A stretch of 64,000 bases of DNA from a phage, in the sequence record PZ445134.1, one strand, 5' to 3'. The notes beneath the pieces are model-generated. The model saw only the letters and a program-made list of their open reading frames with translations, had not been told where the DNA came from and did not search any database. Within the stretch, counting starts at the first letter, position 1. Each line of letters begins with the position of its first letter. Positions 4,877 to 53,296 of this stretch are shown in pieces. Position numbers and translations under genes: made by a program.

Positions 4877-5068
4877 AATTAAATTACATTAAAATATGTT
4901 AAAGCCAACCATGTTCCAGTGAACGAACATGCGATGTAAAAACCCGTATCGCAAATTGTTCTTAGTACAATAAGAAGTGCATTTTTCATAAGTACCTCAA
5001 TACAATTGAAAATATTATACAAATCATAGGGATACTAAGCAACCATATTCCGATCCACATTTTAGAAC

Positions 5069-5332: not shown

Positions 5333-5400
5333 GATGTTATCCTCTTTTAGATAGGACTACTATATCATAGTCCTACTTAGTTGTAAACACTTTTATGAAA

Positions 5401-6181: not shown

Positions 6182-6222
6182 AATTACCCCTAAAGAAAAA
6201 AAGGGACCGAAGTCCCCAATTA

Positions 6223-7158: not shown

Positions 7159-7167
7159 AATGTTTCC

Positions 7168-9381: not shown

Positions 9382-9393
9382 ATTTTTCTCTCA

Positions 9394-9594
9394 TCACAAG
9401 TTACGTTTAAAAATTTCTGCTACTTCAAGAAGTTCTTCTTTAGTAGCTGTATCGGTTTGTATTTTATATCGAATTTCTTTAAAGCGTTCTTTAAAAGACT
9501 CTGCCGACTCGATATCAAAAAATCGTTGGATAAGCCGGAATTCCCGGAGCACCGCTTTATCAAAAAGGTCCAAGTCCACGTTATATGTTCTCAT
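9394..9594 (-). CDS. hypothetical protein (66 aa), rIIA.1 position
   Basis: ORF track; synteny. Confidence 0.5.
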   Translation of the reverse strand: MRTYNVDLDLFDKAVLREFRLIQRFFDIESAESFKERFKEIRYKIQTDTATKEELLEVAEIFKRNL

Positions 9595-9686
9595 AATATT
9601 CTCTTCAGTAGATTCCTAGGGCACTATTACTAAAGACCATATAATCTATCATCTTATGTGTAATAGCGCCTCAGGCTATTCAGGAT

Positions 9687-10787
9687 TTACGCTGTGAAGA
9701 TTTTATCCCACATCGCAACAACTGCATCTCGGTTATACTTCTTCCATACTGCTTCAGCACGTTTAACTCGAGCTTCGTATGTGTCAGTGAATTCTAATAC
9801 AGCTTTTGTGTAAAGCGCAACTACTTCTTTCTTAGGAGTAGAGGAATCAATTTCTACACGCACAGTATCTGGGTCGTATTCGAATGTCGCATGAGGATAA
9901 TCCTTAAAAACTAACTGGATTACAGGGACACCTTTAGAAATGGCTTCAATAGAACTATTCTCTACTGTACCTGTGTCAGGACACGTATTAATAAGTGCTT
10001 TAGCTGTTTTAAGACGTTCCATGATTTCACTGTGTGGAGCATCAATAATAACAGGATATTTAGCTGGTGGTGCCCATTTACTAGGACAGTATCCTGCACC
10101 GTTTTCGCCTAGTGCTTTAATCGCTTCAAGAGCAACATCGGCGCGACGCATTTTAGTGTCATAACGTTGTGCACTAATAATCAGATCAGTCGCCGGAAGA
10201 ACTTCAGGTTTCTCATTCAAACAAATAACCGGATAATCTTCGGCTTCAAACAACGGATTTGCTCGCCAATAATCATAATCAATTTTGTCAGTCAGAGCTG
10301 AAGTCATATGGCAATATTTACGTTCAAATTCACGGAAGGCTTTAGTAGGAGCATAACTCTTACCACCATTCTTATGAATTTGAATAGTCTGGTCCCAAAT
10401 TTGAACAATGCCACGAGATACCGGTTCAAATGGTGTTGCCATAAAATTCTTATGAACTTTAGAGAGACCTGCGTCTTTAATTGCCTGAACGGTTAGTTTA
10501 GTCGGTTCCATAGTAACAACAAAATCGTATTCATGGATGCCGGCTAGTTCAACAATCTTACGAGCCATAGTATAACTCATACCTAGACTGAATTTAGTCA
10601 GATGACCAACAGGATGGTGTGTAACTTTCCAGTCACCAAACGTGTCATTATCAAAGCCGATATAATCAATATCAGCACCAATAGAAACTAAATATTTCAA
10701 CACATTTAAATGTACTGCTTCAAGGCCACCTTGTACACGGTCAGGATTAAATGGGACTGCACGAGATGGGATAAACATAACTTTCAT
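9687..10787 (-). CDS. GT-B fold glycosyltransferase (candidate DNA hmC glycosyltransferase)
   Basis: 366 aa; C-terminal ...TVENSSIEAISKGVPVI... resembles the E-x7-E / LEAMA-G-PVV region of GT4-type GT-B enzymes; no counterpart at this locus in T4. Confidence 0.6.
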   Translation of the reverse strand: MKVMFIPSRAVPFNPDRVQGGLEAVHLNVLKYLVSIGADIDYIGFDNDTFGDWKVTHHPVGHLTKFSLGMSYTMARKIVELAGIHEYDFVVTMEPTKLTVQAIKDAGLSKVHKNFMATPFEPVSRGIVQIWDQTIQIHKNGGKSYAPTKAFREFERKYCHMTSALTDKIDYDYWRANPLFEAEDYPVICLNEKPEVLPATDLIISAQRYDTKMRRADVALEAIKALGENGAGYCPSKWAPPAKYPVIIDAPHSEIMERLKTAKALINTCPDTGTVENSSIEAISKGVPVIQLVFKDYPHATFEYDPDTVRVEIDSSTPKKEVVALYTKAVLEFTDTYEARVKRAEAVWKKYNRDAVVAMWDKIFTA

Positions 10788-10805
10788 AATTAAGCCTTAT
10801 TAAAA

Positions 10806-10832
10806 TTAAAATGAAGCTCCCGAAGGAGCTTA
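10806..10832 (-). terminator. hairpin (UUCG tetraloop) overlapping gene 39 stop, followed by U-rich tract
   Basis: minus strand AAGCUCC-UUCG-GGAGCUU then CAUUUUAAUUUU. Confidence 0.45.
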
Positions 10833-12647
10833 GGACATCCATTCTTTACGAAGTTCTGAATCGTCACCCAACAACATTTCAAAGAGTTCTTTCCAATTTT
10901 CAGGAAGTTTAACTACGTCGTACACAGGGTTCTGAATCATTTCACGATATTCTGACTTTTCAAGGGAGCCTAATCCCTTGATGTATCGAATACTATGCTT
11001 AGGAAGTGTATCTTTAGCTTCTTCATACTCAGCTACAGTATAAAACCATTTTTGAGTTTTGCCAATTTGTGCAATAATTACAGGCGTTTTAACAAAGCGA
11101 ATACGTCCTTGTTCAAACAATTCGGGCCAATTACTAAAGAAAGCAAGCAAAGCTGGATAAATACTTCCAAGACCGTCATGATCGGCATCGGTCATAATTG
11201 CAATATTACGATAGTTTGTATTCTCTGCCTTTTCACCAAGAATAAGACCTGTGATAGCACAGATATCAAAGAGCTCTTTATTCTTCATCATATCAGCATA
11301 TGACATACCCCAGCTATTCATCACCTTACCACGTAATGGGAATCCGCCGTGTAGTTCACGGTCACGAACATCAATGAGATAACCAATTGCAGAATCACCT
11401 TCTGTTAAGAACAATGTCGTATCTGCATCTTTACCACATTGGTTAGCTTTAATATGTTTATGAACCTTAGCTTTAGTTGCCTTTTTAGCTGCTTTAGTTT
11501 CTGCAGCCTTTTCTGCTGCCAATTTACGAGCTAATGCTGCTTCAACAATAGGCATAATCAAGGCTTCGTTTTTAAGAAGCGCCTGAGCAATTTTCTTAGC
11601 ATCTAATTGGATATGATTACGAATATCACCATACGTTGACGTTAAACGTTCTTTAGTCTGAGAATCAAAACGCATGTTGCTCATGTCTCTAATAAACATC
11701 AACATTGTGAGACATTCTTTAACACGAGCTTTAGTGACTTCAATACCCTTATATTTCTTTTTAATACCCGGCAAAAGATGTTCGCAGATATCATCCATTA
11801 CACATTCAACATGATGACCACCATTTTTAGTATGGATGTTATTCACATAAGTTAAATGACGAAAGCCATCTGGTGATGTTGTGAATGCTATAGAGACTTT
11901 ATCATTTTCTTGAATGATGTTATCTTCGCCAAATTGTTTAGCAAATCGTTTAAAATTACCATCAACCTTTTTACCATTAAATGTGAACTTGATATCAGGA
12001 TAAACGACTGCCAATGTTTGAAGTCGGTCTAAAGTAATATCTAAATAAATTTGAGATAAATTATGTTCTTCAAATGAAGAGAAATCAGGAGTGAAGATTA
12101 CTTTAGTGCCTTTACCTTTAGATTTCTTAGATGACCATGATTTGTTTTCCATTCCGTTTGAACAGTTAACAGTGATTTCATTTTCGCCATCTGACGTGAT
12201 GCCTGTAAACAACGTAGAGAAGATATTAGTTAAACTACTCCCGACGCCGTTCATACCACCGGTTTTACGTTCAGAGTCATCACCAAAGTTACCACCGGCC
12301 TTTGGAATAGTCCAGGCTGCTACAGGCCCAGGAATTTGTTCACCATTTTGGTCGGTGACCATTGCTTGAGGAATACCACGTCCGTTATCTTCAACAGAAA
12401 CTTGATTATTTTTAATTTGCACATCAATTTTATTTGCAAACTTAAATGATGTACGAATAGCTTCATCAACCGAGTTGTCAATAATCTCATCGATTAATTT
12501 AACCAGACCAGGAACATATTCAACTTGTTGATATTTACCAAACAAAAAACGCTCGTGGGCTTCTTTGGCCGAAGAACCAATATACATGCCACTTCGTTTC
12601 TTAATATGTTCTACATCTGACAATACCTTAATTTCATTTTTAATCAT
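10830..12647 (-). CDS. 39: DNA topoisomerase II large subunit (GyrB-like ATPase; unsplit 39+60)
   Basis: 605 aa; GHKL ATPase motifs (DNGRGIP); length equals T4 gp39+gp60 fused. Confidence 0.9.
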   Translation of the reverse strand: MIKNEIKVLSDVEHIKKRSGMYIGSSAKEAHERFLFGKYQQVEYVPGLVKLIDEIIDNSVDEAIRTSFKFANKIDVQIKNNQVSVEDNGRGIPQAMVTDQNGEQIPGPVAAWTIPKAGGNFGDDSERKTGGMNGVGSSLTNIFSTLFTGITSDGENEITVNCSNGMENKSWSSKKSKGKGTKVIFTPDFSSFEEHNLSQIYLDITLDRLQTLAVVYPDIKFTFNGKKVDGNFKRFAKQFGEDNIIQENDKVSIAFTTSPDGFRHLTYVNNIHTKNGGHHVECVMDDICEHLLPGIKKKYKGIEVTKARVKECLTMLMFIRDMSNMRFDSQTKERLTSTYGDIRNHIQLDAKKIAQALLKNEALIMPIVEAALARKLAAEKAAETKAAKKATKAKVHKHIKANQCGKDADTTLFLTEGDSAIGYLIDVRDRELHGGFPLRGKVMNSWGMSYADMMKNKELFDICAITGLILGEKAENTNYRNIAIMTDADHDGLGSIYPALLAFFSNWPELFEQGRIRFVKTPVIIAQIGKTQKWFYTVAEYEEAKDTLPKHSIRYIKGLGSLEKSEYREMIQNPVYDVVKLPENWKELFEMLLGDDSELRKEWMS

Positions 12648-29245: not shown

Positions 29246-30389
29246 GGTCGTTTTCTATATCTGCTGCAGACGGAGCATCAGAAGTTTTAACCGGAACTTT
29301 AGTTGTTGCTTTGCAATTAATAAGGTCATTAACAGCATCATCAACTTCTTTAATAGAAGAGATAGCACCTAGTTTATATTTAGTTTCAATTGCATCTCGG
29401 AAAGGTTTGTGTTTAAACAACGGCCCCCAGAATTCTACACAATCAGTAGCTTTAGCACGCCATGATTTTTCTTCACGAATCATTTCGCCTGTTTCTTCGT
29501 CAAGGAATTCACGAGCATACCAACCAGCTTTAGGCTTAACTACAAAACCAATTTCAGTTGCCATTTCTAACAAGCCACTGAATGGGTCGATACCACCATC
29601 AAAATTAACAGTGATCGGGAAAGTAGATTTTTCTTTAACGGTGCGAGATTTTTCTGCTTTCAACGTGAAGTCATAACCGGTCAATTCTGTACCTTCTTTA
29701 ACCTGACGTTTAGAGATAAAAAATACCGTGTTGGCAGAATAAAGAATACCTGTACCACCACCCATAATCTCTTTAGGATACAATCCGCCAATTTCCATTG
29801 CTGTATGGTTAATTGCAACACATGGAATATCTTTAATAGTCAGATAAGGAGTCACAATGCGGAACAGAGATTTAAGTGCCTTAGCACGAGACATATCACC
29901 TACGACTTTCTCGTTCAATGCATCTTCAGTTTCTTTCTTAGATGCAGTATTACCGATTGAATCGATAAAGATAATAACTTTATCACCGCGTTCAATCGCG
30001 TCAAGCTGATTAGTCATATCAACTTTAAGTTGTTCGACAGATTGAATCGGAGTATGAACTACACGGTCTAAATCAACACCCATTGAACGAAAATAAGATT
30101 CTGAAGCACCAAATTCTGAATCATAGAACAAACAAATTGCATCTTTATATTTCTTCATATATGCTGCAACCATGGTCAGCCCAAACAACGTTTTAAAGTG
30201 TTTAGAAGGAGCAGCAAAAATAGTTAAGCCTGATTGCAACCCGGCATTCAGTGCACCACCTAATGCAATATTCAACATCGGAATACGAGTAGGGACTTCA
30301 TCACGATTATTAAACAGCTTAGACTTAGTCAAGTCTGCAGTCATTTTAGAAGTAGAAGCTTTAATCAGACGAGATTTTAAATCAGACAT
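29217..30389 (-). CDS. uvsX: UvsX recombinase (RecA-like)
   Basis: 390 aa (T4 391); synteny. Confidence 0.9.
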   Translation of the reverse strand: MSDLKSRLIKASTSKMTADLTKSKLFNNRDEVPTRIPMLNIALGGALNAGLQSGLTIFAAPSKHFKTLFGLTMVAAYMKKYKDAICLFYDSEFGASESYFRSMGVDLDRVVHTPIQSVEQLKVDMTNQLDAIERGDKVIIFIDSIGNTASKKETEDALNEKVVGDMSRAKALKSLFRIVTPYLTIKDIPCVAINHTAMEIGGLYPKEIMGGGTGILYSANTVFFISKRQVKEGTELTGYDFTLKAEKSRTVKEKSTFPITVNFDGGIDPFSGLLEMATEIGFVVKPKAGWYAREFLDEETGEMIREEKSWRAKATDCVEFWGPLFKHKPFRDAIETKYKLGAISSIKEVDDAVNDLINCKATTKVPVKTSDAPSAADIENDLDEMEDFDE

Positions 30390-30488
30390 TGTATTTTTCC
30401 ATAGGCATCATTATATTTTACTCATGTTTAAAAGATAAGACGATTATATACTAAGGGCTATACAGCATTTAAAACTTTAAACAGGCTC

Positions 30489-31037
30489 TTAACGAGCCCA
30501 TTTGATAATTTCTGTAATCAAATTATTACGTTCGCTTGCATTAAATCCTATAACTTTGTTAGCACCATCATGATTAAGTAATTGATACGTTTGGATTTTG
30601 TTATGAATTGCAAACTCTTCAAAATATGAAATGACTGTATTAAAACCGAATGAAGACAAAGTAATAAGGTCGTCTTCAAAACTTTCAGTCATTTCGTTAC
30701 GTGTTAAAATAATTGTGAACACATCATGGTTTTGGCAAAGACGAACATAATCCTGTTCATAAACGTCAAGAACCGAGTCCACATCTTGTCGAATACGTCC
30801 ATAAACCCAGTTACTAATATATCCACGGTCTAACAGATAAATCTTAGTAGGGTCTAAATAATTCAACATCGTTTCGAAACAGCCAACTTCATTTCGAGAT
30901 TTAACATCGAAACGTCCATCAACTGTTCGTTTAGGGAAATCAATCTTTACATATCTTTCACTAATTTCCATTATGTCATTAATGAAAGTTGTTTTACCAG
31001 CATTATCCGGGCCATCTACTAAAATAATTTTAGCCAT
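30489..31037 (-). CDS. P-loop nucleotide kinase-like protein (TMPK/dNK-like)
   Basis: 182 aa; Walker A GPDNAGKTT; LLDRGY resembles the DR(Y/H) motif of thymidylate/deoxynucleoside kinases. Confidence 0.55.
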   Translation of the reverse strand: MAKIILVDGPDNAGKTTFINDIMEISERYVKIDFPKRTVDGRFDVKSRNEVGCFETMLNYLDPTKIYLLDRGYISNWVYGRIRQDVDSVLDVYEQDYVRLCQNHDVFTIILTRNEMTESFEDDLITLSSFGFNTVISYFEEFAIHNKIQTYQLLNHDGANKVIGFNASERNNLITEIIKWAR

Positions 31038-31038
31038 T

Positions 31039-31938
31039 TTATTCCTCGATTACGACATCTTCATATTTAGGTATATTATACGGTGAAGAAATTAAAGCAT
31101 TAAAGTAGATGAACTCACCAAGACCTGGATGGAATACTTCTTCAGGATTTTCGAAATATTGAATCTTCGGTCTTCCTTTAAGAATTTGATAGTACTCAGT
31201 TTTAGTTGGTTTAAAAATTCGAATCAGCGCTTCTTCAGGATACTTATTTCTGTCGAAGCTATTATTTGGATCGGTTATATAAAGCGGTTGACCTAATTGA
31301 ATTGCACATTCAACCACTTGTTCAAAACGATAACACGGGTCACTAATTCGAAATGGATGAAAAATACCATCTAGATGAATAGGAGCCAAATCACCTACAA
31401 GACGCTGCATGATGGAAGGACGTATAACTTTCTGGGTTACGATAATCTTATTACCATCTGCACCAGCGTTAACCAGCACTTCTTTTTGACGTTCATTCAA
31501 CACAGTAGTTTGAAGTGAACGATTAACCGACAACATGTCGGTTTTTAAGAATTCGTCAATGTAAAAACGTGGTTTATTAGGGTCTGCAGTGATATTGAAA
31601 TTGAATTCTACATCAAAAGCGCCGTCATATCCAGTGATATCTGTGATTAGAAAATCACAATCATAATAAGAAATTAATGAATCAACCACAAATTCATTTT
31701 CAGACCAGAAATATTTACGAGTGTTATACGCGTTATCTTTATACCATAATGGAACAAACTTAAATTCTGGGAAAAGACGTTCGCATTCTTTAATATCAGA
31801 TGCATTACGTGGATATGTAATCACATCACCCGGATTAGCACGGTGCAAATGAAGTTGGAAGTTGCCATCCTTAAGGATAGCATACTGTCCAGTTTCATAA
31901 GACCGCATACTCAAGATAGGTACGCGGAAAATAGCCAT
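31039..31938 (-). CDS. hypothetical protein (299 aa) at the locus where T4 has beta-glucosyltransferase
   Basis: ORF track; tight spacing with flanking kinase and gene 42; no recognisable motif. Confidence 0.5.
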   Translation of the reverse strand: MAIFRVPILSMRSYETGQYAILKDGNFQLHLHRANPGDVITYPRNASDIKECERLFPEFKFVPLWYKDNAYNTRKYFWSENEFVVDSLISYYDCDFLITDITGYDGAFDVEFNFNITADPNKPRFYIDEFLKTDMLSVNRSLQTTVLNERQKEVLVNAGADGNKIIVTQKVIRPSIMQRLVGDLAPIHLDGIFHPFRISDPCYRFEQVVECAIQLGQPLYITDPNNSFDRNKYPEEALIRIFKPTKTEYYQILKGRPKIQYFENPEEVFHPGLGEFIYFNALISSPYNIPKYEDVVIEE

Positions 31939-32654
31939 TAGTCAAGGAATCCTTTAACATAATCAAAATCACGTTCAAACACATGGGCACTTACCATGGT
32001 ATGAGTATAATCACCAACTTCTACACCACATTCGTTAGCTATATAATGAAGTAATTTTCCTTGGAGATAAAAATCCAACTGCATAACAACAGCACAGTTC
32101 TGAGAACGCATATGACAGTGGGTATAAAGCTTACCATCACGAATATAATAAGTCACTGAGTCAGTACATGGATATTCAAGTGTTTCGTCTGAATCAAGCA
32201 AAGCCTGATCAGAACTTTCTAGAATTTGGAACACAACTCTTCGAGAGTTAGGTTTTTCTTTAAGTTCTTTTAGAAGAGTTGGTAACTGGGCCGCAATTCG
32301 TGGACCGTAGAAAGTGTTGAAGTTTGCAGGCAAAGCATCTGATTTAGGTTTAGAAATAAATTTAGCGACGTTAGGATATGCCTTAAATGCTTCTTCTGCA
32401 TCAGTACCACCAGAAATCATAAATTTCCAGAAATCTTCAGCATATTCATAAGAGATGCGATTAATACGTGGGTCGGTCATTTTGAATGATGAAGGGGTAT
32501 CAACAACTACTGTCATAGACCCAATTTCATTACAACGTCCAATACGAGAATCAGTAACGAATTCCGGGTTTTCTAAAATTTCACGATTGACAGCTTTAAA
32601 TGCGGATTGAAAATCTGCGGCTTTAATATATTTCATTGTGTTATGTTTTCCCAT
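31938..32654 (-). CDS. 42: dCMP hydroxymethylase-like (thymidylate synthase fold)
   Basis: 238 aa; YPCTDSV...HCHMRSQN resembles the T4 gp42 catalytic Cys region (FMCTNTV...MRSND); synteny. Confidence 0.7.
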   Translation of the reverse strand: MGKHNTMKYIKAADFQSAFKAVNREILENPEFVTDSRIGRCNEIGSMTVVVDTPSSFKMTDPRINRISYEYAEDFWKFMISGGTDAEEAFKAYPNVAKFISKPKSDALPANFNTFYGPRIAAQLPTLLKELKEKPNSRRVVFQILESSDQALLDSDETLEYPCTDSVTYYIRDGKLYTHCHMRSQNCAVVMQLDFYLQGKLLHYIANECGVEVGDYTHTMVSAHVFERDFDYVKGFLD

Positions 32655-32787
32655 GTTTACCTCAATACAGTTATTATATACTCAATTCATAAAGCTTATT
32701 TGAATTTCTTAGCGATGTTGATATAACGTAGAGCTTCGGCATCGATACTTCCAAGGACGCTATGAAGGAACGCGTCGACATAGTATT

Positions 32788-32937
32788 CTAGTTGAACAGG
32801 TTCTCTTTAATCACTTTAGCCGCTTTAGTTTCAAACAGGCCCATAAGGGCCTTTTTAAGAATTTGTTCGTTGTTGTTAATTTTAATAGTCAAAATCTCTT
32901 CGTTAAGTTGGTGGTTAAAAGTTTTTCTAGAAATCAT
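32788..32937 (-). CDS. small ORF (~49 aa) translationally coupled to the upstream Cys-rich protein
   Basis: ATG overlaps upstream stop (GAATGATT); below ORF-track cutoff. Confidence 0.3.
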   Translation of the reverse strand: MISRKTFNHQLNEEILTIKINNNEQILKKALMGLFETKAAKVIKENLFN

Positions 32938-34094
32938 TCTGGGTACCTCAAAGCGTCATCAGAGTTAGTTATATCAATAATAGATATAGAGTTTTCCGAT
33001 AACCCATTTTTAGATAACTGACGTTTATAATATCTTTCACAATATGTACACGTCGTCCCACAGATTTCATTAGCACAATCGAAATCTGGATGTTTGAACC
33101 ACCTTTTTTCTAAAAAGCCATCTAACAAAGAGGTTTCAATATTTACCGTATGTGAAAACTCAGTCTCATTTTCAAGAGTGAAAATGGTCTCTAAAGGCTT
33201 CCACAATTCCAACAAATTACCTTCAAATTTTTCAGAAGCATAAGCTTCAAGAACTTTCAAAATGTAGTCTGTGCTACCTGTACGTCCTGAAACTTTGAAT
33301 TGAGTGATACCAATATCATTATAAAGTTTCAAATCTTGAGGACGAACAAAACGAGTTCTCAACCAGTTAAATGGATCTGTATCACGAGCTTTAATACAGT
33401 GCTGCATTGGATATCCATTTAAGGATTTGGCATCATCTACTGTAACATCAGTGCTATGGAAAATATAGCAAGAGTCACGATAACTACAATGTGTTGTATA
33501 CCCTTTACCAGCATTAGAACAGAACTCATTTACAAGAACTTCAAATATTATATTGTTCTTATTACAAAACTCTGCTGCACGCTTCAGGAAAGAAACTGAA
33601 CGGTTCTTATGAATTCCACAGCAGACCTTTTTGATATTATATTGGTCATGCAAGTATTTGATTTGAGTTACAGCATCGACATGTAGAATTGTTGAAACTT
33701 CAATCTCAATGTCTTTATTGACTTCACGAACAATTTCCATAACAACAGGGTTAGCGATAGTAATACGCCAAACGCCTATTGACCAAAGATACTGAACATA
33801 ATCCTGAATAGCTTTCTTCTTCCACTCAACTAGTTCTCTTTTTGAACCAGGATTTATCGTGTTGAGTGTACAGTTAAAGCAAATACCTAATTCGTTACAA
33901 CGTTTAACGTAATCTTCTAACATCTTTTTGTCAACGTCAGGAAGCCTAAAATCAGGTCTGGCTGCTACAAAAGCCATTTCTCTTGTAGAGCCGTATACTT
34001 CGTTTATCAAGCTATTAGGATAAGTTTTATTGAGCTCTACGATTTTATCAAGAAGAGCTAAATCAAAATTCGTTCCGATTTTAAAGGTATTCAT
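32934..34094 (-). CDS. Cys-rich protein of unknown function (386 aa)
   Basis: multiple Cys clusters including C-terminal C-x4-C-x3-C-x2-C (DCANEICGTTCTYC); first gene of the block inserted between 42 and 43. Confidence 0.5.
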   Translation of the reverse strand: MNTFKIGTNFDLALLDKIVELNKTYPNSLINEVYGSTREMAFVAARPDFRLPDVDKKMLEDYVKRCNELGICFNCTLNTINPGSKRELVEWKKKAIQDYVQYLWSIGVWRITIANPVVMEIVREVNKDIEIEVSTILHVDAVTQIKYLHDQYNIKKVCCGIHKNRSVSFLKRAAEFCNKNNIIFEVLVNEFCSNAGKGYTTHCSYRDSCYIFHSTDVTVDDAKSLNGYPMQHCIKARDTDPFNWLRTRFVRPQDLKLYNDIGITQFKVSGRTGSTDYILKVLEAYASEKFEGNLLELWKPLETIFTLENETEFSHTVNIETSLLDGFLEKRWFKHPDFDCANEICGTTCTYCERYYKRQLSKNGLSENSISIIDITNSDDALRYPE

Positions 34095-34148
34095 TTTTGC
34101 ATCTCGCGTTAATTGTTGCGATGGTTTTTGCAGGTCTTACTTAAATTA

Positions 34149-34550
34149 TTATAGATTCGGTTTATATGATTTAAATGTTTCGAATTCGCCTTTATTCATA
34201 AGAGCTTTGAATTCGTCAGGACGCATAGCTTTGTCGTCGATAATCCAATCATATACTGGTTTATGTGTTAGCAAATTATGGTACTTCAATCCAATGTTTG
34301 CCAAGTTCTGAATCAGACTTGGGAGAATGTCAATTGCTATACGACCAGGACCGACTGACTTCATACCACGAGCAGTGTAAAGCGTTATGGTATGCCCTGC
34401 ATCATACAGGGCATTAATGGCAGACACCATTTCGACGTCTGGTTTGAAGTTCACGTAATCACGATTGTTATTCCACTCTGTTATACAATCATCGACATCA
34501 AAACAAAGATTAAGCATGTTTTCTACACGGTGCATTAGATTCGTTCCCAT
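34149..34550 (-). CDS. HAD-superfamily phosphatase (sugar-phosphate phosphatase-like)
   Basis: 133 aa; motif I FDVDDCIT, motif II TLYTARG, motif IV YDWIIDDK. Confidence 0.6.
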   Translation of the reverse strand: MGTNLMHRVENMLNLCFDVDDCITEWNNNRDYVNFKPDVEMVSAINALYDAGHTITLYTARGMKSVGPGRIAIDILPSLIQNLANIGLKYHNLLTHKPVYDWIIDDKAMRPDEFKALMNKGEFETFKSYKPNL

Positions 34551-36220
34551 TGATGAGTGATATCGCCACCGATTGGACGATAGGAAACACCAGTTTCTTT
34601 ATCAGTTAGTACCCATTTACCAGGATTTTTTGTAATCAGAGTAGCCGTTACAGGTTCTGCTACGTCATAACTAATAGAGCCGTCCTGAAGTACACGGCCC
34701 ATGTTACGTAATTGCTTAGTCAGAAGTTCCATACCTTTATAATATGCGGCTACCGCTTTAAGTGGATTATTCTTGAAATAACCACCTAATGCAATCCAGA
34801 TAATTGCCACTGCCAAATGATGATACTCGTTAAACGAACTCATCTTTCCATATTTGTAAACTAATGGATTGATGTTAATAGTCACATTACAAGTTGTTTC
34901 ATCAATAGTAAACTGTCCCCAGGTCGGATTAGCGTTGAATTCATCATACCCTGAAACAGCATAAAGCACTTTAGCTTCGTCATACAATTTTGGTCCGTAA
35001 ATCTTGGTTTCGCCAAAATATCCACGAGGGTCGATAAACTTGACTTCGCCGTTATCAGTAATCATAGTATTACTGAAGTTCGGGTCACCATGAATAACAG
35101 AGTACTGTCCCTGAGAACGGTTATGATAACGAATAAGGTGTTCTAAAGCTTGTTTCAACATTGGCTTCAGACGTCCGATCTTAGTGTAGTTCACATGTGT
35201 GATTTTACCAAATGAATCAATCAATGGTTGAATACTTTCACAACGATCAATAACTTTCGTATAGAATTCTTTAGTGAAATCACGACGAACAGTTTCAGGA
35301 CTTACAAAATAAGTGTCTGTGCTGAATTTCAGTGCGTCTAAAATTGCATCAACAATTTGTGGACGAGCAAGACTCGATTTGGATTTAATATATTCAAATG
35401 CCGGCTTACCTTTAATGCGTTCCATTTCAAAGTTATTTTCATTAACAGAAACTAACTGAGGAACTGAATCTGATTTCACTTTAAGATACCATGAAATCTC
35501 ATCTTTCTGAAGAGCTCGGCCCTGTTCGGTTAATGCGAATTTAGTTACAGTTTCTTCACCAATTTCAACGGCATTAAAACTACGATTAAGTTCACGAACT
35601 TCATGAGCTTTTTCAAGTTTAGGCATATCACCTAAATCAATTAGATTCATAAGCTCTGATTTATTGAATGCGCTGCCGTAAAGGAATTCTACGAAATCAC
35701 GTCCTTTGCAGTATTCATGAATTTCCTCATCAGTAGAACCCATATAGAATTCCCAGTCTTTGAACTGATAAATTCCTACAACATTACCACCTGTTGAACC
35801 TACGTTAGTGATATTTTCACCGTCGAAATTATATCGACATTCGTCGCCCTTAACATAGATTGCGTTAACATTCCAAGACCACGAACCAAAATCAGGAATA
35901 ATATCGCACCAGTTAACAATTACATTATGGCCGTCTAAATCTTTGTGTAATTTAGCAAGAGCATAAGCAGAACCGTACGCTTCATCAACTGTACGAATAG
36001 TCACATTGAACCCTTCTTGCTCACAATAAGCTCGAACAGTTTCAGCAAATTTTGAATGAACTACTACAATAATTTCATCTGCGCCAAGGTCAGAATAAAT
36101 TGTATACAAATTGCTCAGAATAGTGTCTTGTTTATAGTTAACAAGCACCTTAGGAATATGATGCGTTATTGGATACAAACGAGTTGCCAGTCCAGCACCA
36201 AGAATAACAGCTTTTTTCAT
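34535..36220 (-). CDS. bifunctional sugar-1-phosphate nucleotidyltransferase (RmlA-like) / sugar kinase (APH-like)
   Basis: 561 aa; N-terminus KKAVILGAGLATRLYPIT (G-x-G-x-R-L); C-terminal HGDPNFSNTMI ... FIDPRG kinase catalytic/DxG-like motifs. Confidence 0.7.
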   Translation of the reverse strand: MKKAVILGAGLATRLYPITHHIPKVLVNYKQDTILSNLYTIYSDLGADEIIVVVHSKFAETVRAYCEQEGFNVTIRTVDEAYGSAYALAKLHKDLDGHNVIVNWCDIIPDFGSWSWNVNAIYVKGDECRYNFDGENITNVGSTGGNVVGIYQFKDWEFYMGSTDEEIHEYCKGRDFVEFLYGSAFNKSELMNLIDLGDMPKLEKAHEVRELNRSFNAVEIGEETVTKFALTEQGRALQKDEISWYLKVKSDSVPQLVSVNENNFEMERIKGKPAFEYIKSKSSLARPQIVDAILDALKFSTDTYFVSPETVRRDFTKEFYTKVIDRCESIQPLIDSFGKITHVNYTKIGRLKPMLKQALEHLIRYHNRSQGQYSVIHGDPNFSNTMITDNGEVKFIDPRGYFGETKIYGPKLYDEAKVLYAVSGYDEFNANPTWGQFTIDETTCNVTININPLVYKYGKMSSFNEYHHLAVAIIWIALGGYFKNNPLKAVAAYYKGMELLTKQLRNMGRVLQDGSISYDVAEPVTATLITKNPGKWVLTDKETGVSYRPIGGDITHQWERI

Positions 36221-36401
36221 GTTGTGGTCCTCATTGGTAAGTAGGAGTATTGTACACTATTCTAGTTAAAGCATTCATACTTTGCTTGTAGTCCAATCAT
36301 AATCCATCCGATTATAAGAGTCGGAATCATTACTGGAGCCGTTAAGCTCCAGTAGATAGTCATGACAAGCATCAATAGTAAAAGTCCTATTGTTATTGCT
36401 T

Positions 36402-37037
36402 TCATTGTTCGCCTCGTAACATGGCACCTAGTGCACCGCCAGGGTGGAACTTAAGGAAGTCATTAGAGGTAAATCCACGTTCAGACGAAAGGTTGATAGC
36501 AAACGTATCGATAAGCGCTAACAACAATGTAGTGGACATAGTCGGAGCTAGAGAATTCTCATCAACCTCTACTGCGATGCCTGTACAGAACGTATAATCA
36601 AAAAGAGCTTCGTATTCTTGTGGAATGTCTGGGTTACAATGCAACAGAATCTGTTTGACGTTCGGACGAATCATTTTAAGATGCTTAGCCACGCCTATCA
36701 TTTCTTCAGTTTTACCGGAACGACTAATATGAATCAACACATCATTAGGCGCAATGAATCCTGCATCACCGTGAGAATAATGCCCAGTGTTCAAGTACAT
36801 ACTCGGGATACCGAGTGAAGCAAATGTCTCAGAAGCTTTAGTTGCAATATTAGCATTCTTACCAACACCTGTAATAATTACTCTGCTTTCATAATTACTA
36901 AGTCCCGGGCGTCGAAGAGTTTCTAGAATAGCATTATAACGAGCAGGGTTTTGACTAATTACTTTGGCCATAGCGGCCAAAGAAGAAGCTTGTTTTATGA
37001 TTGCGTCAATAGCGATAGTAATAGGAGTAGTTTTCAT
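36402..37037 (-). CDS. SIS-domain sugar-phosphate isomerase (KpsF/GutQ-like arabinose-5-phosphate isomerase type)
   Basis: 211 aa; GVGKNANIA and SRSGKTEE SIS motifs; C-terminal HPGGALG as in KdsD/GutQ. Confidence 0.7.
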   Translation of the reverse strand: MKTTPITIAIDAIIKQASSLAAMAKVISQNPARYNAILETLRRPGLSNYESRVIITGVGKNANIATKASETFASLGIPSMYLNTGHYSHGDAGFIAPNDVLIHISRSGKTEEMIGVAKHLKMIRPNVKQILLHCNPDIPQEYEALFDYTFCTGIAVEVDENSLAPTMSTTLLLALIDTFAINLSSERGFTSNDFLKFHPGGALGAMLRGEQ

Positions 37038-37077
37038 ATTTCTCTCATTTAATTAGTTTGCCGTCCATGACATTATA

Positions 37078-39789
37078 TCAAAAATCGAACATATCGAAAA
37101 GAGATGCTTTCTTCTCGTAATCGAGTTTCGCTGCTGATGTGAATCCTTCAAGTGGTTTAATAAATGTCTTCTCAAGGAGAACAGTGTAGTCCATCCAATG
37201 AAGTACGTCGTCTTTAATTAAATCTGTGATTTCAGTACCGGAAGGCCATGCGATACATTTATCACCGAATGGGTTTCCTTCACGTAAAGGCAGAACATAT
37301 ACTTTTTCACCTTCTACAACTTGCGGTGCATCGATATTACCTTTGATAGCACGGTTATACGTCAGAATTCCACGAATATGGAATGGGCATTTGGGACCAG
37401 GGAATCCACCTACATCATATTTAGCAATGTTATTCGCAGAAGATACTGACGCGATGCTAATATAATTCAATTGACGGAATTCTTTTTCAAACTCTTTAAA
37501 ATATTCTTGTAATGATTCTTCACCTTCTTGAAGCATACGACGAATACATTCTTTAAGAGCTTTCTGTACTGCTTTAGGAGTCGAAGATTTCTGAGTCTCT
37601 AGACCCATGATTTTGAGTTTAGGCTCAGCGTAACGAGTACCTTCCATATCCCACACGTTTAATGCATAACGTTTCTTACCAGTCCAGAATCCACCAATAC
37701 CTTTAGAACCGAGTGGAGGCCCAGCGATAGCTTCTCGGTCCATGAACATTAAGTGTTGTTTATTGTTCATGTATTCACACATTTCACGGAAACCTCTATC
37801 AATAGCTGGTTCCATACGTTCACGTGCAAACTTATCTAAGAAGTCTACCCAATGGTTGGTATCACGGAATTTAGATTCACCAACCTTATCGATAATTTTA
37901 TCAGCAGATACGTAAATAGAGTCTGTATCACCATAAAGAACGAAAGCTTCACCTTCTGTGCCACAAACTTCATTCAGATATTCATTAACTTTACGTTCAA
38001 TCCACTGTAAAGCCATTTGCCCGAATGTTGTGATTGCAGTAGCATTACGCAAATCGTAATAACGGAACCAAACGTTGCCAAGTGCACCATAAAGTGAGTT
38101 GATAAGCAATTTACGGTTAATTTGGGCAGTCATACCTGCAACTTCAGTACGTTGAGCTCTAAACAACATTTCATTAAGAGATTTAGCAGACAACTTTTTA
38201 ATCTTTTCTTTAATCTCATCGCTGAAGTCGAAACGATAATCAACATCTAATGGTCCGTCAACAGAAAGATTAGGATTATGCAATGCCTCTTTAATTATTT
38301 CACCATTACGTTGAGCCGCAAGCATGTAACCTTTATGTTCTTTACGTTGATTAAAGACTTTAGTGATTTCAGTTGGAACAACACCGTCACGGTCTTTATA
38401 ATACATCATGCCGTTAGGAGAACAACTGTACACATCTGAAGGACGTTCAGCAACAGCGTTAATATAATCATGCAATGGAGCTACTTTAAACGTTCCTGCT
38501 ATTGTTTCTGGGCTAATATTCACTTGGCGAATAATACTTGGATACAGAGATGTAAGGTCGAAACTCATTACGTATTTGTATCGATTTGGAATAGGTTCCT
38601 TAACAAAAGCGCCGGGATAAGGTTGAACCGGGTGAGAACGACCTTGTGGAATCACCTTGTTCTGCTCTTTAAGGCTATTAAAAATAATAGCATCCCATGT
38701 TTTAATTGGGCTAAACACAGATTGAATCTGTATCTTAGCATAATAACCCATGTCCAAGCTCAAGTTAATGAACTGACGTTTAGCATCAATTTGCAATACA
38801 CGATACACGTCGATAATGTTATAAGAAATATATCGTTGGTGATTGCTTTCACGAAGCTTAGAAATAGGGCCGTCATATTTCAGTTTACCAACGTTCAATT
38901 CAAATTCTGAAATGTAATCCAGAGAATATGACGGTTGATTGGTAAAAGAGAATTTTTTGTAAAGGTCAATGTAATCAAGAACAGAGATACCGAACAATGT
39001 AATGATTTCACGAGAACCATACATGTTTTCGATAACTTTAACACGAGTTTTACGATGTGGTGATAAACGTTTCGCAGTAGATTCGCCAAAAATATTCTTG
39101 ATTCGGTTATACACATATGGAATATCAAATGACTCAACGTTCCATCCAGTCAAAATGACAGGAGTTTTCTGTTGCCAGAAGTTGAGATATTCCATCAACA
39201 ATTCTTTTTCGTTATCGAACGGCATATAAATGATTTTATCGATAATTTCGGATGGGACTTCATCACCGCCTTGTTCTTGAAGCTTAGCCGCAATTTCGAT
39301 AGACCATTCTTCCACATTCCCGTATGGAGAATTCAAAAGGTCAAATACGTAGAACCTGTCGTCAATTGAGTCATAATGAGTGATAGCATCAATCGGATGT
39401 TTTGCTTGTGACGGCTCAGGGAACCCGTCTGGAGATGTTACTTCGATGTCGAAGTTAGCCACACGAATTTTTGTATGGTCGTATTTGATTTCATAGTTAT
39501 AAGTGTCAGACAAATACGCCAATTTGAAATCGTCCATGCCAAGTGCTTCAAGTCCGATATCTTCCATGCGTTTAATCCATTGGGAGGCATCACGCATATT
39601 GGCGAACAACTTACGAGTACACGGCTTACCGTAGATATCGAAATATTTCGTAGCCTGACTTTCCGGACAATGAGCAAACAGTGATGGTTTATATTCTACT
39701 TCACGAGTACGTTCACGGCCGTTAGAATCGATGTAACGTTCAAAAATTGAATCACCAATCTGTTCAACCGTTAAGTAAAATTCTTTCAT
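37078..39789 (-). CDS. 43: DNA polymerase (family B)
   Basis: 903 aa; exo motif FDIEV, pol motifs KLLINSLYG and YGDTDS; N-terminus MKEFYLTVEQIGDSIFERYIDSNGRER reads like RB69-type gp43 as recalled. Confidence 0.95.
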   Translation of the reverse strand: MKEFYLTVEQIGDSIFERYIDSNGRERTREVEYKPSLFAHCPESQATKYFDIYGKPCTRKLFANMRDASQWIKRMEDIGLEALGMDDFKLAYLSDTYNYEIKYDHTKIRVANFDIEVTSPDGFPEPSQAKHPIDAITHYDSIDDRFYVFDLLNSPYGNVEEWSIEIAAKLQEQGGDEVPSEIIDKIIYMPFDNEKELLMEYLNFWQQKTPVILTGWNVESFDIPYVYNRIKNIFGESTAKRLSPHRKTRVKVIENMYGSREIITLFGISVLDYIDLYKKFSFTNQPSYSLDYISEFELNVGKLKYDGPISKLRESNHQRYISYNIIDVYRVLQIDAKRQFINLSLDMGYYAKIQIQSVFSPIKTWDAIIFNSLKEQNKVIPQGRSHPVQPYPGAFVKEPIPNRYKYVMSFDLTSLYPSIIRQVNISPETIAGTFKVAPLHDYINAVAERPSDVYSCSPNGMMYYKDRDGVVPTEITKVFNQRKEHKGYMLAAQRNGEIIKEALHNPNLSVDGPLDVDYRFDFSDEIKEKIKKLSAKSLNEMLFRAQRTEVAGMTAQINRKLLINSLYGALGNVWFRYYDLRNATAITTFGQMALQWIERKVNEYLNEVCGTEGEAFVLYGDTDSIYVSADKIIDKVGESKFRDTNHWVDFLDKFARERMEPAIDRGFREMCEYMNNKQHLMFMDREAIAGPPLGSKGIGGFWTGKKRYALNVWDMEGTRYAEPKLKIMGLETQKSSTPKAVQKALKECIRRMLQEGEESLQEYFKEFEKEFRQLNYISIASVSSANNIAKYDVGGFPGPKCPFHIRGILTYNRAIKGNIDAPQVVEGEKVYVLPLREGNPFGDKCIAWPSGTEITDLIKDDVLHWMDYTVLLEKTFIKPLEGFTSAAKLDYEKKASLFDMFDF

Positions 39790-50752: not shown

Positions 50753-51223
50753 TTAATCATGTTTCCACACCCCGTCGGTATTTGTCCAAAGTCGCTGATT
50801 ATCTGATCCTCGCCACAGTTTTTTGGTCGGAAGATTTTTCTCATACTTCCCATCAATAATAACATCAACATATTTAAGCATTTCTAGTTGTTTAATATCT
50901 TCAAACTTATATCCTGTCCACAACCAAATGCTTTTATTGGGATAAAGTTTTTTTACTGTTTGAACAATGCAATGAACAACATCTTGGTTATCAGGATAGA
51001 GAGGGTCTCCTCCAGTTATAGTTAATCCTTCTATATAATCGTTATTCAAACATTCAATTAATTGTTCCAGCGTTTCACCGGTGAATGGGATACCATTTCT
51101 AGCGTTCCATGTTGATTTATTATAACACCCCTCGCATTTATGCAAACAACCTGTAACGAAAAGAACGACCCTGCAACCGGGGCCATTCACAAAATCGCAA
51201 GGATAAAATCTATCATAATTCAT
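50753..51223 (-). CDS. nrdG: anaerobic ribonucleotide reductase activating protein (radical SAM)
   Basis: 156 aa; C-x3-C-x2-C (CLHKCEGC); 4-nt overlap with nrdD stop. Confidence 0.85.
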   Translation of the reverse strand: MNYDRFYPCDFVNGPGCRVVLFVTGCLHKCEGCYNKSTWNARNGIPFTGETLEQLIECLNNDYIEGLTITGGDPLYPDNQDVVHCIVQTVKKLYPNKSIWLWTGYKFEDIKQLEMLKYVDVIIDGKYEKNLPTKKLWRGSDNQRLWTNTDGVWKHD

Positions 51224-52518
51224 TGGTGTTTAACCCTATGCATGATTTCTTTATTTTTGCCGAGATTAAATCCGCGTTCGTTCGGATTTCCAAGATAACC
51301 GCATGTTCTTCTTATTGTGTTCATCTTTTTAGGATCAGTTTCTCCGCAAACTGAACAAACAAATCCGTTTTCAGTAGGAGTCATTTCATGAGTACTTCCA
51401 CATGTAAAACATTTATCTACTGGCATATTAACACCAAAATAATCTAAATGTTGTGCAGCATAATCCCATACAGCCTCAAGACCTTTTAGGTTATTTTTCA
51501 TATCAGGAAGTTCAACATAAGAAATGTGACCACCAGTCGCAATGAAATGATATGGCGCTTCACGAGAAATCTTTTCAAACGGAGTAATATTTTCTTCTAC
51601 TGAAACGTGGAAACTATTAGTGTACCAGCCTTTATCAGTAACATCTTTTACACTTCCATATTTTTCGGTATCAAGTTTACAGAAGCGATAGCACAGGTTT
51701 TCAGCAGGAGTAGAATACAAGCTAAAAGCAAAACCGGTTCTTTCAGTCCACTGCTTAAGACGAGCATTCATTTTAGTCAAAATTTCCTGTCCAATATCAC
51801 GTCCGACAAGAATATTCAATTCGTGAATACCAATGTATCCTAAAGACACTGAACTTCTGCCGTTTTTAAATAACTCAATTATATCATCATCAGGTTTAAG
51901 ACGAACCCCAAATGCACCTTCTTGGTAAAGAATAGGAGCAACAGTAGCTTTAACTCCTTTTAAGGAACTAATTCTACACATCAAAGCTTCAAAACACAGA
52001 TCCATTCGTTCATTAAATAGCTCAACAAATTTCTGTTCATTGAATTGTGTTCCAATATAAGAATCTAACGCAATACGAGGAAGATTCAGTGTTACAACAC
52101 CAAGATTATTACGCCCATCAAGAATTTCATTACCAGTCGAATCTTTCCATACGCTCAAAAAACTACGGCAACCCATTGGAGAAACAGGAACAGATGAACC
52201 GGTGATAGCTTTATTATTCTTAACTGAAATAATATCAGGATACATTCTTTTGCTTGCACATTCTAACGCAAGCTGCTTAATATCATAGTTCGGGTCGTCT
52301 TTATAAAGATTAACACCCTCTTCAACGAACATAACAAGTTTAGGGAAAATAGGAGTTATCCCATCGCGACCAAGACCTTTAATACGATTTTTCAGAATTG
52401 CTTTCTGAATCATTCGTTCAGTCCAGTCAGTTCCCGTGCCAAATGTAATGGTTACAAAAGGCGTTTGTCCGTTTGAACTGAAAAGTGTATTTACTTCATC
52501 ATTATATTCAGCATGAGT
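51220..52518 (-). CDS. nrdD: anaerobic ribonucleotide reductase NrdD, exon 2
   Basis: glycyl radical motif RRTCGYLG and C-terminal Zn ribbon CFTCGS...CSVCG; 5' boundary inferred from frame plus terminal intron G. Confidence 0.75.
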   Translation of the reverse strand, partial: THAEYNDEVNTLFSSNGQTPFVTITFGTGTDWTERMIQKAILKNRIKGLGRDGITPIFPKLVMFVEEGVNLYKDDPNYDIKQLALECASKRMYPDIISVKNNKAITGSSVPVSPMGCRSFLSVWKDSTGNEILDGRNNLGVVTLNLPRIALDSYIGTQFNEQKFVELFNERMDLCFEALMCRISSLKGVKATVAPILYQEGAFGVRLKPDDDIIELFKNGRSSVSLGYIGIHELNILVGRDIGQEILTKMNARLKQWTERTGFAFSLYSTPAENLCYRFCKLDTEKYGSVKDVTDKGWYTNSFHVSVEENITPFEKISREAPYHFIATGGHISYVELPDMKNNLKGLEAVWDYAAQHLDYFGVNMPVDKCFTCGSTHEMTPTENGFVCSVCGETDPKKMNTIRRTCGYLGNPNERGFNLGKNKEIMHRVKHQ

Positions 52519-52525
52519 CGCAAAT

Positions 52526-53296
52526 TCATGCCCGTTTATATGAAACAACAAAATTTGGATAGTCCATAGATATGCAACGTTCTTTTATAGTGCTAGGATG
52601 AAAATTTAGCGCTTTAGCTGCTTCTATATAAGACGTATACTTAATACCGTCAACAACCACATATTCAGGAACTTTATGAATAGTAGTCTTAATACTCAAA
52701 ACAAGAGGATGAGTTTCGACTTCACTTTCAGTGCAATTTAAATATTCCGCTGCTTTTTTAAAACTTCTAAAAGTTTTATTTTTAAGCTTTATCGATACTT
52801 GTTTTTTACTTTTTCGACTATTGATATTATTTTGCACATGTTCCTTAGATCTTCTGTTTTTAGCATAATATTCAGCCACAGAAGATTTTATATTGTTTTT
52901 ATGAGATTCGGATAACACTTTACCCTTATGAGCATCTCTTAATTTTTGAATATGTTCTTCAGTATCCGGATGCTTATAAAACTTTTTACCGCCTATGGAT
53001 TTATTTAAACATTTTTTGCTATAAAAATATTTACGTATGACCTCTTCTTCATGTTTTAATGCATCTTTATAACTATCAAATGTTTTTAAAATTATCCATT
53101 TAGTAGGTGTATCAGTTTTTAAGCGTTCATTTATATACTTAGATGACGTTGTGTAAGTTTTCCAGTTTGTGGGCTTGTTTTTAATTGTTCTAAATTTTTT
53201 ATAACCGATATAAATGTCGCCATTAGAAAACTTAACTAAGTATGTAAATGCGTCTTTATCTTTTATTTTAGTACAACGTCTTTTTATCCATTTCAT
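52526..53296 (-). CDS. GIY-YIG homing endonuclease (I-TevII-like)
   Basis: 256 aa; N-terminal YLVKFSNGDIYIGY GIY-YIG-type motif; Lys-rich C-terminal DNA-binding region; inside nrdD intron. Confidence 0.7.
   Translation of the reverse strand: MKWIKRRCTKIKDKDAFTYLVKFSNGDIYIGYKKFRTIKNKPTNWKTYTTSSKYINERLKTDTPTKWIILKTFDSYKDALKHEEEVIRKYFYSKKCLNKSIGGKKFYKHPDTEEHIQKLRDAHKGKVLSESHKNNIKSSVAEYYAKNRRSKEHVQNNINSRKSKKQVSIKLKNKTFRSFKKAAEYLNCTESEVETHPLVLSIKTTIHKVPEYVVVDGIKYTSYIEAAKALNFHPSTIKERCISMDYPNFVVSYKRA

Follow-up and report, generated by a model that had tools for sequence, protein, structure and literature searches.

The window analyzed here, the whole 64,000-nucleotide stretch of phage sequence record PZ445134.1, comes from an RB69-like T-even phage of the genus Mosigvirus, and its DNA modification block contains a gene for a 386-residue protein of the peptidase U32 family (32934-34094, minus strand; the RB69 gp50 ortholog). 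We propose that this protein is probably a prephenate-dependent, O2-independent hydroxylase of cytosine C5, which would provide an anaerobic route to 5-hydroxycytosine (5hoC). The protein belongs to the U32 family, conserves the residues essential in TrhP and RlhA, is under purifying selection and is linked to genes for prephenate synthesis and for glycosylation of 5hoC; from these observations we infer its substrate, its oxygen donor, metal binding and an anaerobic role. What appears, on balance, to be new is the proposed recruitment of a prephenate-type U32 hydroxylase to phage DNA hypermodification.

The protein was almost identical to RB69 gp50 (RB69p050; 382/386 residues, 99%) and matched phrog_5757 with an E value of 4e-265. 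Pfam Peptidase_U32 (PF01136) matched residues 94-286 with 42.4 bits against a cut-off of 22.4 (E 6.3e-11). A profile of the phage clade was aligned with the E. coli paralogs TrhP, RlhA, UbiU and UbiV over 265 columns at an hhalign probability of 97.6%; this confident match needed the four-paralog alignment, and the comparison with UbiU alone was weak (5.6% probability). Similarity to RlhA by itself was marginal (8.7 bits in hmmsearch), an NCBIfam scan gave a weak UbiU match, and a sequence search of the PDB returned nothing at E up to 1. An AlphaFold2 model built from 82 homologs had a mean predicted local distance difference test score (pLDDT) of 92.8, and its best Foldseek match in the PDB was the U32 protein Mk0906 (5d88; E 3e-7, template modeling score 0.63, target-normalized), the remaining PDB matches being generic TIM barrels, so that the predicted fold is that of a U32 barrel. 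Judged by sequence, the 386-residue protein is a divergent member of Peptidase_U32. Within Mosigvirus, the ratio of nonsynonymous to synonymous substitution rates (dN/dS) of the gene was ~0.04 at dS 0.10-0.14, indicating strong purifying selection, and all 222 matches in phage records (222/222) covered at least 80% of the protein.

A first-pass annotation of this DNA, made from the letters alone, had described the 386-codon open reading frame (ORF) as rich in cysteine (Cys), with several Cys clusters. The ORF and its position were confirmed, and 14 Cys are present, but only part of them are conserved. In an alignment of the query and 120 homologs (down to ~47% identity), C158, C192, C203, C209, C233, C340, C345, C349 and C352 were invariant and C177 was kept in 98%; C66, C72, C75 and C159 were not conserved. 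It has been reported that E162, C170 and C177 of TrhP and E161, C169 and C176 of RlhA are essential in vivo (PMC6599085). These positions align with E185, C203 and C209 of the phage protein, with a Cx5C spacing in the phage versus Cx6C, and in the close clade (82-121 homologs) E185 was at least 90% conserved and both Cys were invariant. The central cluster is spaced C192-x10-C203-x5-C209-x23-C233, compared with the canonical CX6CX15CX3/4C, of which UbiU and UbiV have variants. The C-terminal CxxxCxxC that had drawn attention (residues 339-352, DCANEICGTTCTYC) is present and invariant, but the true motif is C-x4-C-x3-C-x2-C (C340/C345/C349/C352), with a fourth invariant Cys. Among 130 more distant representatives, the C-terminal four Cys were kept in 84-89%, which is far beyond chance, C192 and C233 in 98-100%, and C203 and C209 in ~60%. 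We infer that the C-terminal motif is a second, clade-specific predicted metal site. The suggestion that the block contains an Fe-S or redox enzyme with chemistry beyond glycosyl transfer gains support from homology to a [4Fe-4S] family, though not from the radical-SAM reasoning (see below) that had been attached to it.

In the window, codon 75 of the U32 ORF (33870-33872, minus strand) encodes Cys, in place of the Tyr found in 116/121 aligned sequences including RB69, Shf125875 and phiE142 (FNYTxN). This private Y75C change at a position conserved in at least 90% may be deleterious, or it may stem from an error in sequencing.

The product that the block makes is known from recent work, the 5hoC/arabinose hypermodification of RB69-like phages having been elucidated only in 2025-2026. 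RB69 DNA contains mono- and di-arabinosylated 5hoC and not, as once thought, arabosyl-hydroxymethylcytosine (PMC13326640). The ThyA homolog RB69 gp48 carries flavin and converts deoxycytidine monophosphate (dCMP) to 5-hydroxy-dCMP, with the installed oxygen derived from O2 according to 18O2 labeling; its in vitro confirmation is credited to He et al. 2026 by the same source (PMC13326640). The ThyA homolog of the window (31938-32654, minus strand; Pfam Thymidylat_synt) was identical to RB69 gp48 (RB69p048) at 236/238 residues (99%), and is therefore its ortholog. The first-pass annotation had called this neighbor gp42, which must be corrected: it is not a dCMP hydroxymethylase but the flavin- and O2-dependent 5-hydroxy-dCMP synthase. 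The window also encodes NrdD and NrdG, the anaerobic ribonucleotide reductase, so the phage is equipped for anoxic replication.

The product of chorismate mutase is prephenate, and genes of this pathway recur next to the U32 gene. In two T-even relatives outside Mosigvirus, Serratia phage LC53 and Enterobacter phage Entb_45, the U32 stop codon is overlapped by a chorismate mutase gene; its product matched Pfam CM_2 above threshold (E 1.7e-11 and 2.4e-10, respectively) and keeps R11, R28, K39, S84 and Q88 of the E. coli enzyme (EcCM). Chorismate mutase homologs were found in 51 phage records and, among the 40 matches listed, adjoined U32 and/or ThyA-like genes; the hosts of these phages were Klebsiella, Serratia, Yersinia, Enterobacter, Edwardsiella, Erwinia, Pectobacterium, Shewanella, Providencia, Morganella and others.

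We further collected 51 non-T4 loci of the U32 clade with 34-56% identity, comprising 34 IMG/VR contigs (including jumbo phages of 190-294 kb), 5 metagenome contigs and 12 contigs from genomes or metagenome-assembled genomes (MAGs). Chorismate mutase and/or 3-deoxy-D-arabino-heptulosonate 7-phosphate (DAHP) synthase genes were located within 10 kb of U32 in 18/51 loci, mostly one or two genes away, in four arrangements: the chorismate mutase gene shortly after U32, a gene for a DAHP synthase-chorismate mutase fusion one position before it, or a DAHP synthase gene adjoining U32 on its upstream or on its downstream side. Two neighbors matching DAHP_synth_1 scored 221-237 bits with NCBIfam DAHP synthase models versus 61-67 bits with models of 3-deoxy-D-manno-octulosonate 8-phosphate synthase, and consisted of the catalytic core only. 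An AfhE-like kinase/pyrophosphorylase was present in 20/51 loci and relatives of the phrog_3891 glycosyltransferase in 10/51, the latter often directly upstream of U32 (six non-T4 loci). Other immediate neighbors, in 29 loci sampled, were thymidylate-kinase-like kinases, TAGT glycosyltransferases, dCMP deaminase, dUTPase/dCTP deaminase (DCD) and uracil-DNA glycosylase (UDG); Thymidylate_kin was the commonest Pfam family among non-T4 neighbors (8 members). A ThyA-type hydroxylase gene was absent from 50 of the 51 loci, and the remaining locus had a single weak match.

Several of these loci deserve separate mention. In L042, L043, L044, L046 and L070, the gene one position upstream of U32 encodes a bifunctional DAHP synthase-chorismate mutase fusion of 340-351 residues that matched both profiles. 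A DAHP synthase gene adjoins U32 in L013, L031, L056 and L063, where no chorismate mutase match was found; the enzymes of L013 and L031 are catalytic cores alone, with no regulatory domain. In L016, a 61-kb phage contig, the cassette at 3777-12179 contains a Gly_transf_sug glycosyltransferase, a kinase, a phrog_3891-like glycosyltransferase, U32, TAGT, dUTPase/DCD, DNA polymerase and UDP-galactopyranose mutase, with no ThyA homolog, and U32 occupies the slot held by the ThyA homolog in RB69. The gene content of this cassette predicts an uncharacterized glycosylated 5-hydroxypyrimidine DNA modification. In L001 (a 466-kb contig) and L014/L015, a dCMP deaminase gene lies immediately before U32 or overlaps it, and the contigs encode bacterial-type Pol III alpha, UDG, thymidylate kinase and single-stranded DNA-binding protein; this adjacency hints at dUMP as the substrate of some members, or at a deaminase that uses the hydroxylated product. 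L002, L003 and L068 have a second, divergent U32 paralog ~5 kb downstream (22% identity; phrog_5757 E 1e-16), which adjoins radical-SAM/SPASM, nucleoside 2-deoxyribosyltransferase-like, deoxynucleoside kinase and 5'-nucleotidase genes.

According to our model, the enzyme would hydroxylate cytosine at C5 without O2, most likely at the level of dCMP and less likely in DNA; dCMP is the probable substrate because the clade accompanies nucleotide kinases, dCMP deaminase and dUTPase/DCD. Prephenate would donate the oxygen, on the model of TrhP, RlhA and UbiU/UbiV, and the reaction would leave the hydroxylated base and phenylpyruvate. The central cluster C192/C203/C209/C233 would be the site of the [4Fe-4S] center of the family, and the C-terminal Cx4Cx3Cx2C would hold a second cluster, relaying the two electrons removed from the base. 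As in the mechanism proposed for UbiU/UbiV, a two-electron oxidation of the ring, with the electrons leaving through the Fe-S centers, would be followed by decarboxylative aromatization of prephenate, which would deliver hydroxide and yield phenylpyruvate. The resulting 5-hydroxy-dCMP would enter the downstream steps shared with the ThyA route, that is, kinase, DNA polymerase and arabinosyltransferases. Since the phage destroys dCTP, replication would be impossible without a source of 5-hydroxy-dCTP. With both the U32 protein and the O2-requiring ThyA-type enzyme, DNA could be fully modified in air as well as in the anoxic gut, a pairing that would mirror TrhO/TrhP, UbiIHF/UbiUV and NrdAB/NrdDG.

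This U32 clade is a small, distinct one; it accounted for 1,704 matches among 1.84 billion representative proteins and occurred in 12/185,579 species genomes, most of which were MAGs of anaerobes. A tblastn search detected U32 in 222 phage records, and the listed hosts were all Enterobacterales or Shewanella, which are facultative anaerobes. The AfhE-like gene was found in 367 records, 57 of them from phages of Acinetobacter, a strict aerobe, and none of these 57 had U32 (57/57). For example, in Acinetobacter phage Lazarus the HAD gene is directly followed by the ThyA homolog, with no U32 between them. Similarly, the cluster listed for phage DLP3 includes no U32, yet DLP3 makes arabinosyl-5hoC (PMC13326640). 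The U32 protein is thus dispensable for the chemistry in air, because Acinetobacter phages and DLP3 modify their DNA without it.

These phages also bear on the main alternative, that U32 belongs to the sugar branch, where it might, for instance, reduce or isomerize an arabinose or nucleotide-sugar intermediate. This is the published label: gp50 appears in PMC13326640 only as an entry in Table 1, with the words "sugar or heterocycle reductase" and a 5d88 structural match but no discussion, and the readable arabinosylation literature offers no supported function for gp50 beyond that label. The GenBank record of phage AlbertHofmann similarly speaks of a "putative enzyme involved in UDP-arabinose biosynthesis". 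Gene order is compatible with it, as U32 lies between the HAD phosphatase gene and the base-modifying genes, and non-T4 U32 genes often adjoin AfhE-like, arabinose-5-phosphate-isomerase-like and KdsC-like phosphatase genes. On the other hand, the synthesis of UDP-arabinofuranose is already explained by the isomerase, AfhE and AfhF (PMC13326640), and DLP3 and the 57 Acinetobacter phage records share these sugar genes but have no U32. We consider a sugar-branch role unlikely, since Acinetobacter phages can make the sugar without U32 and since it would leave unexplained both the repeated presence of chorismate mutase and DAHP synthase genes nearby and the conserved residues of TrhP and RlhA for pyrimidine hydroxylation.

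If prephenate is indeed involved, its use could still be a different one. Linkage to chorismate mutase and DAHP synthase marks a connection to the shikimate pathway only and does not identify the acceptor, and UbiU and UbiV are U32 enzymes that act on aromatics other than nucleic acids (PMC6747719). The module might then hydroxylate another aromatic metabolite or divert host aromatic metabolism. We found, however, that the position of U32 inside base-modification cassettes is constant and that it directly adjoins 5hoC-type glycosyltransferases and nucleotide kinases in phages without another hydroxylase, which makes such a role improbable. Hydroxylation of RNA (5-hydroxyuridine at position 34, ho5U34, of phage or host tRNA, or 5-hydroxycytidine, ho5C, in rRNA), which would tune translation during infection, is suggested by TrhP and RlhA, the only characterized U32 proteins directed at pyrimidines, both of which have RNA substrates (PMC6599085, PMC5727448). 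Nevertheless, we give it equally little credence: both enzymes are already encoded by the host, their C-terminal domains are missing from the phage protein, which aligns over the U32 core only, and the gene is part of a DNA-modification cassette in every phage lineage examined, flanked not by tRNA genes but by genes for dCMP deaminase, nucleotide kinases, dUTPase/DCD, DNA glycosyltransferases and DNA polymerases.

Least likely is a radical S-adenosylmethionine (SAM) or generic Fe-S enzyme built on the C-terminal CxxxCxxC, or a true U32 peptidase or collagenase: the invariant Cx3Cx2C spacing within C345-C352 had suggested radical-SAM-like ligands to the first-pass annotation, and many GenBank records, in hundreds of genomes, name the gene product a peptidase, but there is no Radical_SAM Pfam match (PF04055), the motif lies at 340-352 of 386, after the barrel, its fourth invariant Cys leaves no open iron site for SAM, the known ligand positions of the family are the central C203/C209, the peptidase name is inherited from the family although its characterized E. 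coli members are hydroxylation factors, and no locus has a protease-type context.

Returning to the prephenate-dependent hydroxylase, several points weigh against it. In vitro reconstitution has yet to be achieved for any U32 enzyme (PMC10990095). The canonical third and fourth Cys positions do not align in the phage protein, and ~20% of distant clade members (P0153-P0301) have Gly and His in place of C203 and C209; this sub-clade retains C192, C233 and the C-terminal four Cys, and would have a different predicted metal site. The chorismate mutases of T-even phages lack R51 of EcCM, and their activity is predicted from sequence. The pathway is present but U32 absent in E. coli Dhakavirus JS98, and Klebsiella phage Biddle_MM4 encodes U32 but no chorismate mutase; hence, the module is not universal and is not self-sufficient in every phage. 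Sugar-activation genes accompany U32 as well, and this genomic context fits a role in the sugar branch too. The contrast between aerobic and anaerobic hosts is confounded by phylogeny, as the Acinetobacter phages form a separate subfamily. Finally, Y75C together with a frameshift in the small gene that follows U32 (described below) may mean that the module is decaying or impaired in this isolate, or that the sequence contains errors. A transposon sequencing preprint on Bas46 and LC53 contained no essentiality data for the U32 gene.

The 6.7-kb block around the U32 gene showed 99.4% identity to Escherichia phages AV112 and AV113, and at least 95% identity to 155 phage records. On the minus strand its order is gp43 DNA polymerase, arabinose-5-phosphate isomerase, a 47-residue ORF, kinase/pyrophosphorylase, haloacid dehalogenase (HAD) phosphatase, U32, the small ORF, the ThyA homolog, glycosyltransferase, thymidylate-kinase-like kinase and UvsX. 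U32 therefore does not head the block, as it had been described, but is found in the middle of it, between the HAD phosphatase gene and the small ORF. The isomerase, with a SIS domain, corresponds to RB69 gp55 (36402-37037; Pfam SIS; phrog_5670, E 2e-116). The bifunctional sugar kinase/nucleotidyltransferase, AfhE-like and assigned to UDP-arabinofuranose synthesis (PMC13326640), corresponds to RB69 gp52:53 (34535-36220; Pfam NTP_transferase and kinase-like matches; phrog_4098), and the AfhF-like HAD phosphatase, whose role is from the same source, to RB69 gp51 (34149-34550; phrog_1238, E 5e-43). Between the isomerase and kinase/pyrophosphorylase genes, at the position of RB69 ORF054c, is the conserved hydrophobic ORF of 47 residues (36262-36405; phrog_3610, E 4.5e-27). 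Beyond the ThyA homolog are the glycosyltransferase RB69 gp46:47 (31039-31938; phrog_3891, E 4e-156), which putatively adds the first arabinose to 5hoC in DNA (PMC13326640), and the nucleotide kinase RB69 gp45 (30489-31037; phrog_761, E 7e-45). All these genes are on the minus strand. A promoter and terminator scan of 30300-37200 gave no more sites than shuffled sequences, and a TTTAAA-16-TATAAT just upstream of the U32 start does not argue for a promoter.

Elsewhere in the window, a 366-residue ORF (9687-10787, minus strand; phrog_8302) adjoins rIIA, the position expected of RB69 gp3, the putative second arabinosyltransferase. The anaerobic ribonucleotide reductase region (50753-53296, minus strand) consists of NrdG (50753-51223), the C-terminal two-thirds of NrdD (51220-52551) and, upstream, a homing-endonuclease ORF (52526-53296). 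The reductase gene appears to be interrupted in a manner resembling the T4 nrdD intron case.

The small ORF coupled to U32 is a member of the ORF049c family. As had been noticed, a 49-codon ORF (32788-32937, minus strand) begins with an ATG that overlaps the U32 TGA (GAATGATT), and the 4-nt overlap (ATGA) was confirmed. It matched phrog_8601 (E 7e-26) over profile positions 1-46 of 79, and ORF049c has 79 codons in RB69, Shf125875 and phiE142. Compared with Shigella phage Shf125875, the window has a 2-nt insertion behind codon 45 (AAAGAACC to AAAGAGAACC), and the resulting frameshift truncates the gene to 49 codons. The ancestral 79-codon frame is otherwise intact (32696-32937, minus strand), and deleting the insertion in silico gave a 79-residue product with 94-96% identity to RB69, Shf125875 and phiE142. 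Full-length ORF049c had a dN/dS of 0.05-0.19, indicating purifying selection. On these sequence comparisons, the 49-codon ORF is a frameshift-truncated allele of a real, conserved gene family, and what the window has lost is the stretch with the highest conservation between genera (YYADAFxHSxxGxI...). An AlphaFold2 model of ORF049c was of low confidence (pLDDT 66) and contained three helices.

Truncation at codons 45-51 was also seen in ~91 of ~225 database sequences (~40%; clusters P0121-P0152). At least four different lesions (KEPVQLEY*, KETCS..ILR*, KENLFN* and KEPV*) cluster around the AAAGAACC site, so truncation of ORF049c is recurrent, which suggests either that the site is prone to frameshifts or that the gene is repeatedly lost when the phages are propagated aerobically. 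The ORF was also considered as a degenerate chorismate mutase. Neither the window ORF nor the 79-residue family had a CM_2 match in Pfam, the matching profile is phrog_8601 and not 10027, and this candidate was ruled out by phages PM2 and Yersinia TG1 and by L032, in all of which a chorismate mutase gene comes after an ORF049c-like one. In LC53 (L007, 6158-6502) and Escherichia phage EcS1 (L027), the 114-residue chorismate mutase has an N-terminal extension of ~40 residues (MRRINHxMNE...). Its resemblance to the ORF049c-like N-terminus (MNRINHKLNEE... in L032) suggests that the two small genes were fused in Winklervirus-type phages. Translational coupling and co-occurrence permit the speculation that ORF049c is a partner of U32.

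In its widest form, our proposal is that phages use the first O2-independent hydroxylase of a DNA nucleobase, a single-chain, two-cluster U32 protein that takes oxygen from prephenate to make 5-hydroxypyrimidine deoxynucleotides. In T-even phages of facultative anaerobes, it would be the anaerobic counterpart of the flavin/O2 enzyme; in many uncultured phages of anaerobes (including jumbo phages), which carry their own chorismate mutase and a deregulated DAHP synthase, it would be the sole route to glycosylated 5-hydroxypyrimidine DNA. We regard this wider claim as evenly poised. A U32 hydroxylase that uses prephenate would explain how RB69-like gut phages replicate and remain camouflaged without oxygen, and would add DNA precursors to the RNA and quinone substrates of U32/prephenate chemistry, which is still poorly understood. 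The phage protein may prove to be a small and soluble enzyme that, as a single chain acting on a simple nucleotide, could make this chemistry tractable. The cassettes also flag uncultured phages of anaerobes that are predicted to carry DNA modifications based on 5-hydroxypyrimidines. There is also a bearing on phage therapy, since at anoxic infection sites the sensitivity of a phage to restriction, CRISPR and type IV systems depends on how its DNA is modified.

Comparison with characterized systems shows where the phage protein conforms and where it departs. RlhA (YdcP) is needed for ho5C2501 of 23S rRNA in a prephenate- and Fe-S-dependent manner (PMC5727448, PMC6599085). It shares with the phage protein the U32 domain and the essential Glu and Cys pair, and its outcome, C5-hydroxylation of cytosine, is the one proposed for the phage. 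However, RlhA has 653 residues with tandem U32-related parts and acts on a single rRNA residue, whereas the phage protein is a single 386-residue domain with a unique C-terminal four-Cys region and a DNA precursor as its proposed substrate. TrhP (YegQ) is the best E. coli match to the U32 core and is an Fe-S protein (10.1101/2021.04.01.438105). It is needed for prephenate-dependent, O2-independent formation of ho5U34 in tRNA, for which TrhO is the O2-dependent route (PMC6599085); like the proposed phage pair, TrhO and TrhP are an O2-dependent and an O2-independent enzyme with one product. TrhP differs in its CX6CX15CX3C spacing, in having a Peptidase_U32_C domain in place of the Cys-rich tail, and in its RNA substrate. 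UbiU and UbiV each bind one [4Fe-4S] cluster via four Cys and are needed for O2-independent hydroxylation of ubiquinone (PMC6747719), with prephenate as the oxygen donor of the pathway (PMC10990095). They provide two clusters per functional unit, which the phage protein may hold in one chain, but they form a heterodimer that acts on a lipid-soluble aromatic ring with the UbiT carrier and have no nucleic-acid link. RB69 gp48, DLP3 gp80 and the HY126 homolog would share product and pathway with the phage U32 protein, and in the window the gp48-type gene is one gene apart from U32; however, the gp48-type enzyme has an unrelated fold and cofactor, requires O2 and has been demonstrated experimentally, whereas the U32 role is deduced. 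NrdAB and NrdDG offer a T-even precedent for O2-dependent and O2-independent enzymes at one nucleotide step; as their chemistry and protein families are different, the parallel with the U32/ThyA pair is one of analogy only.

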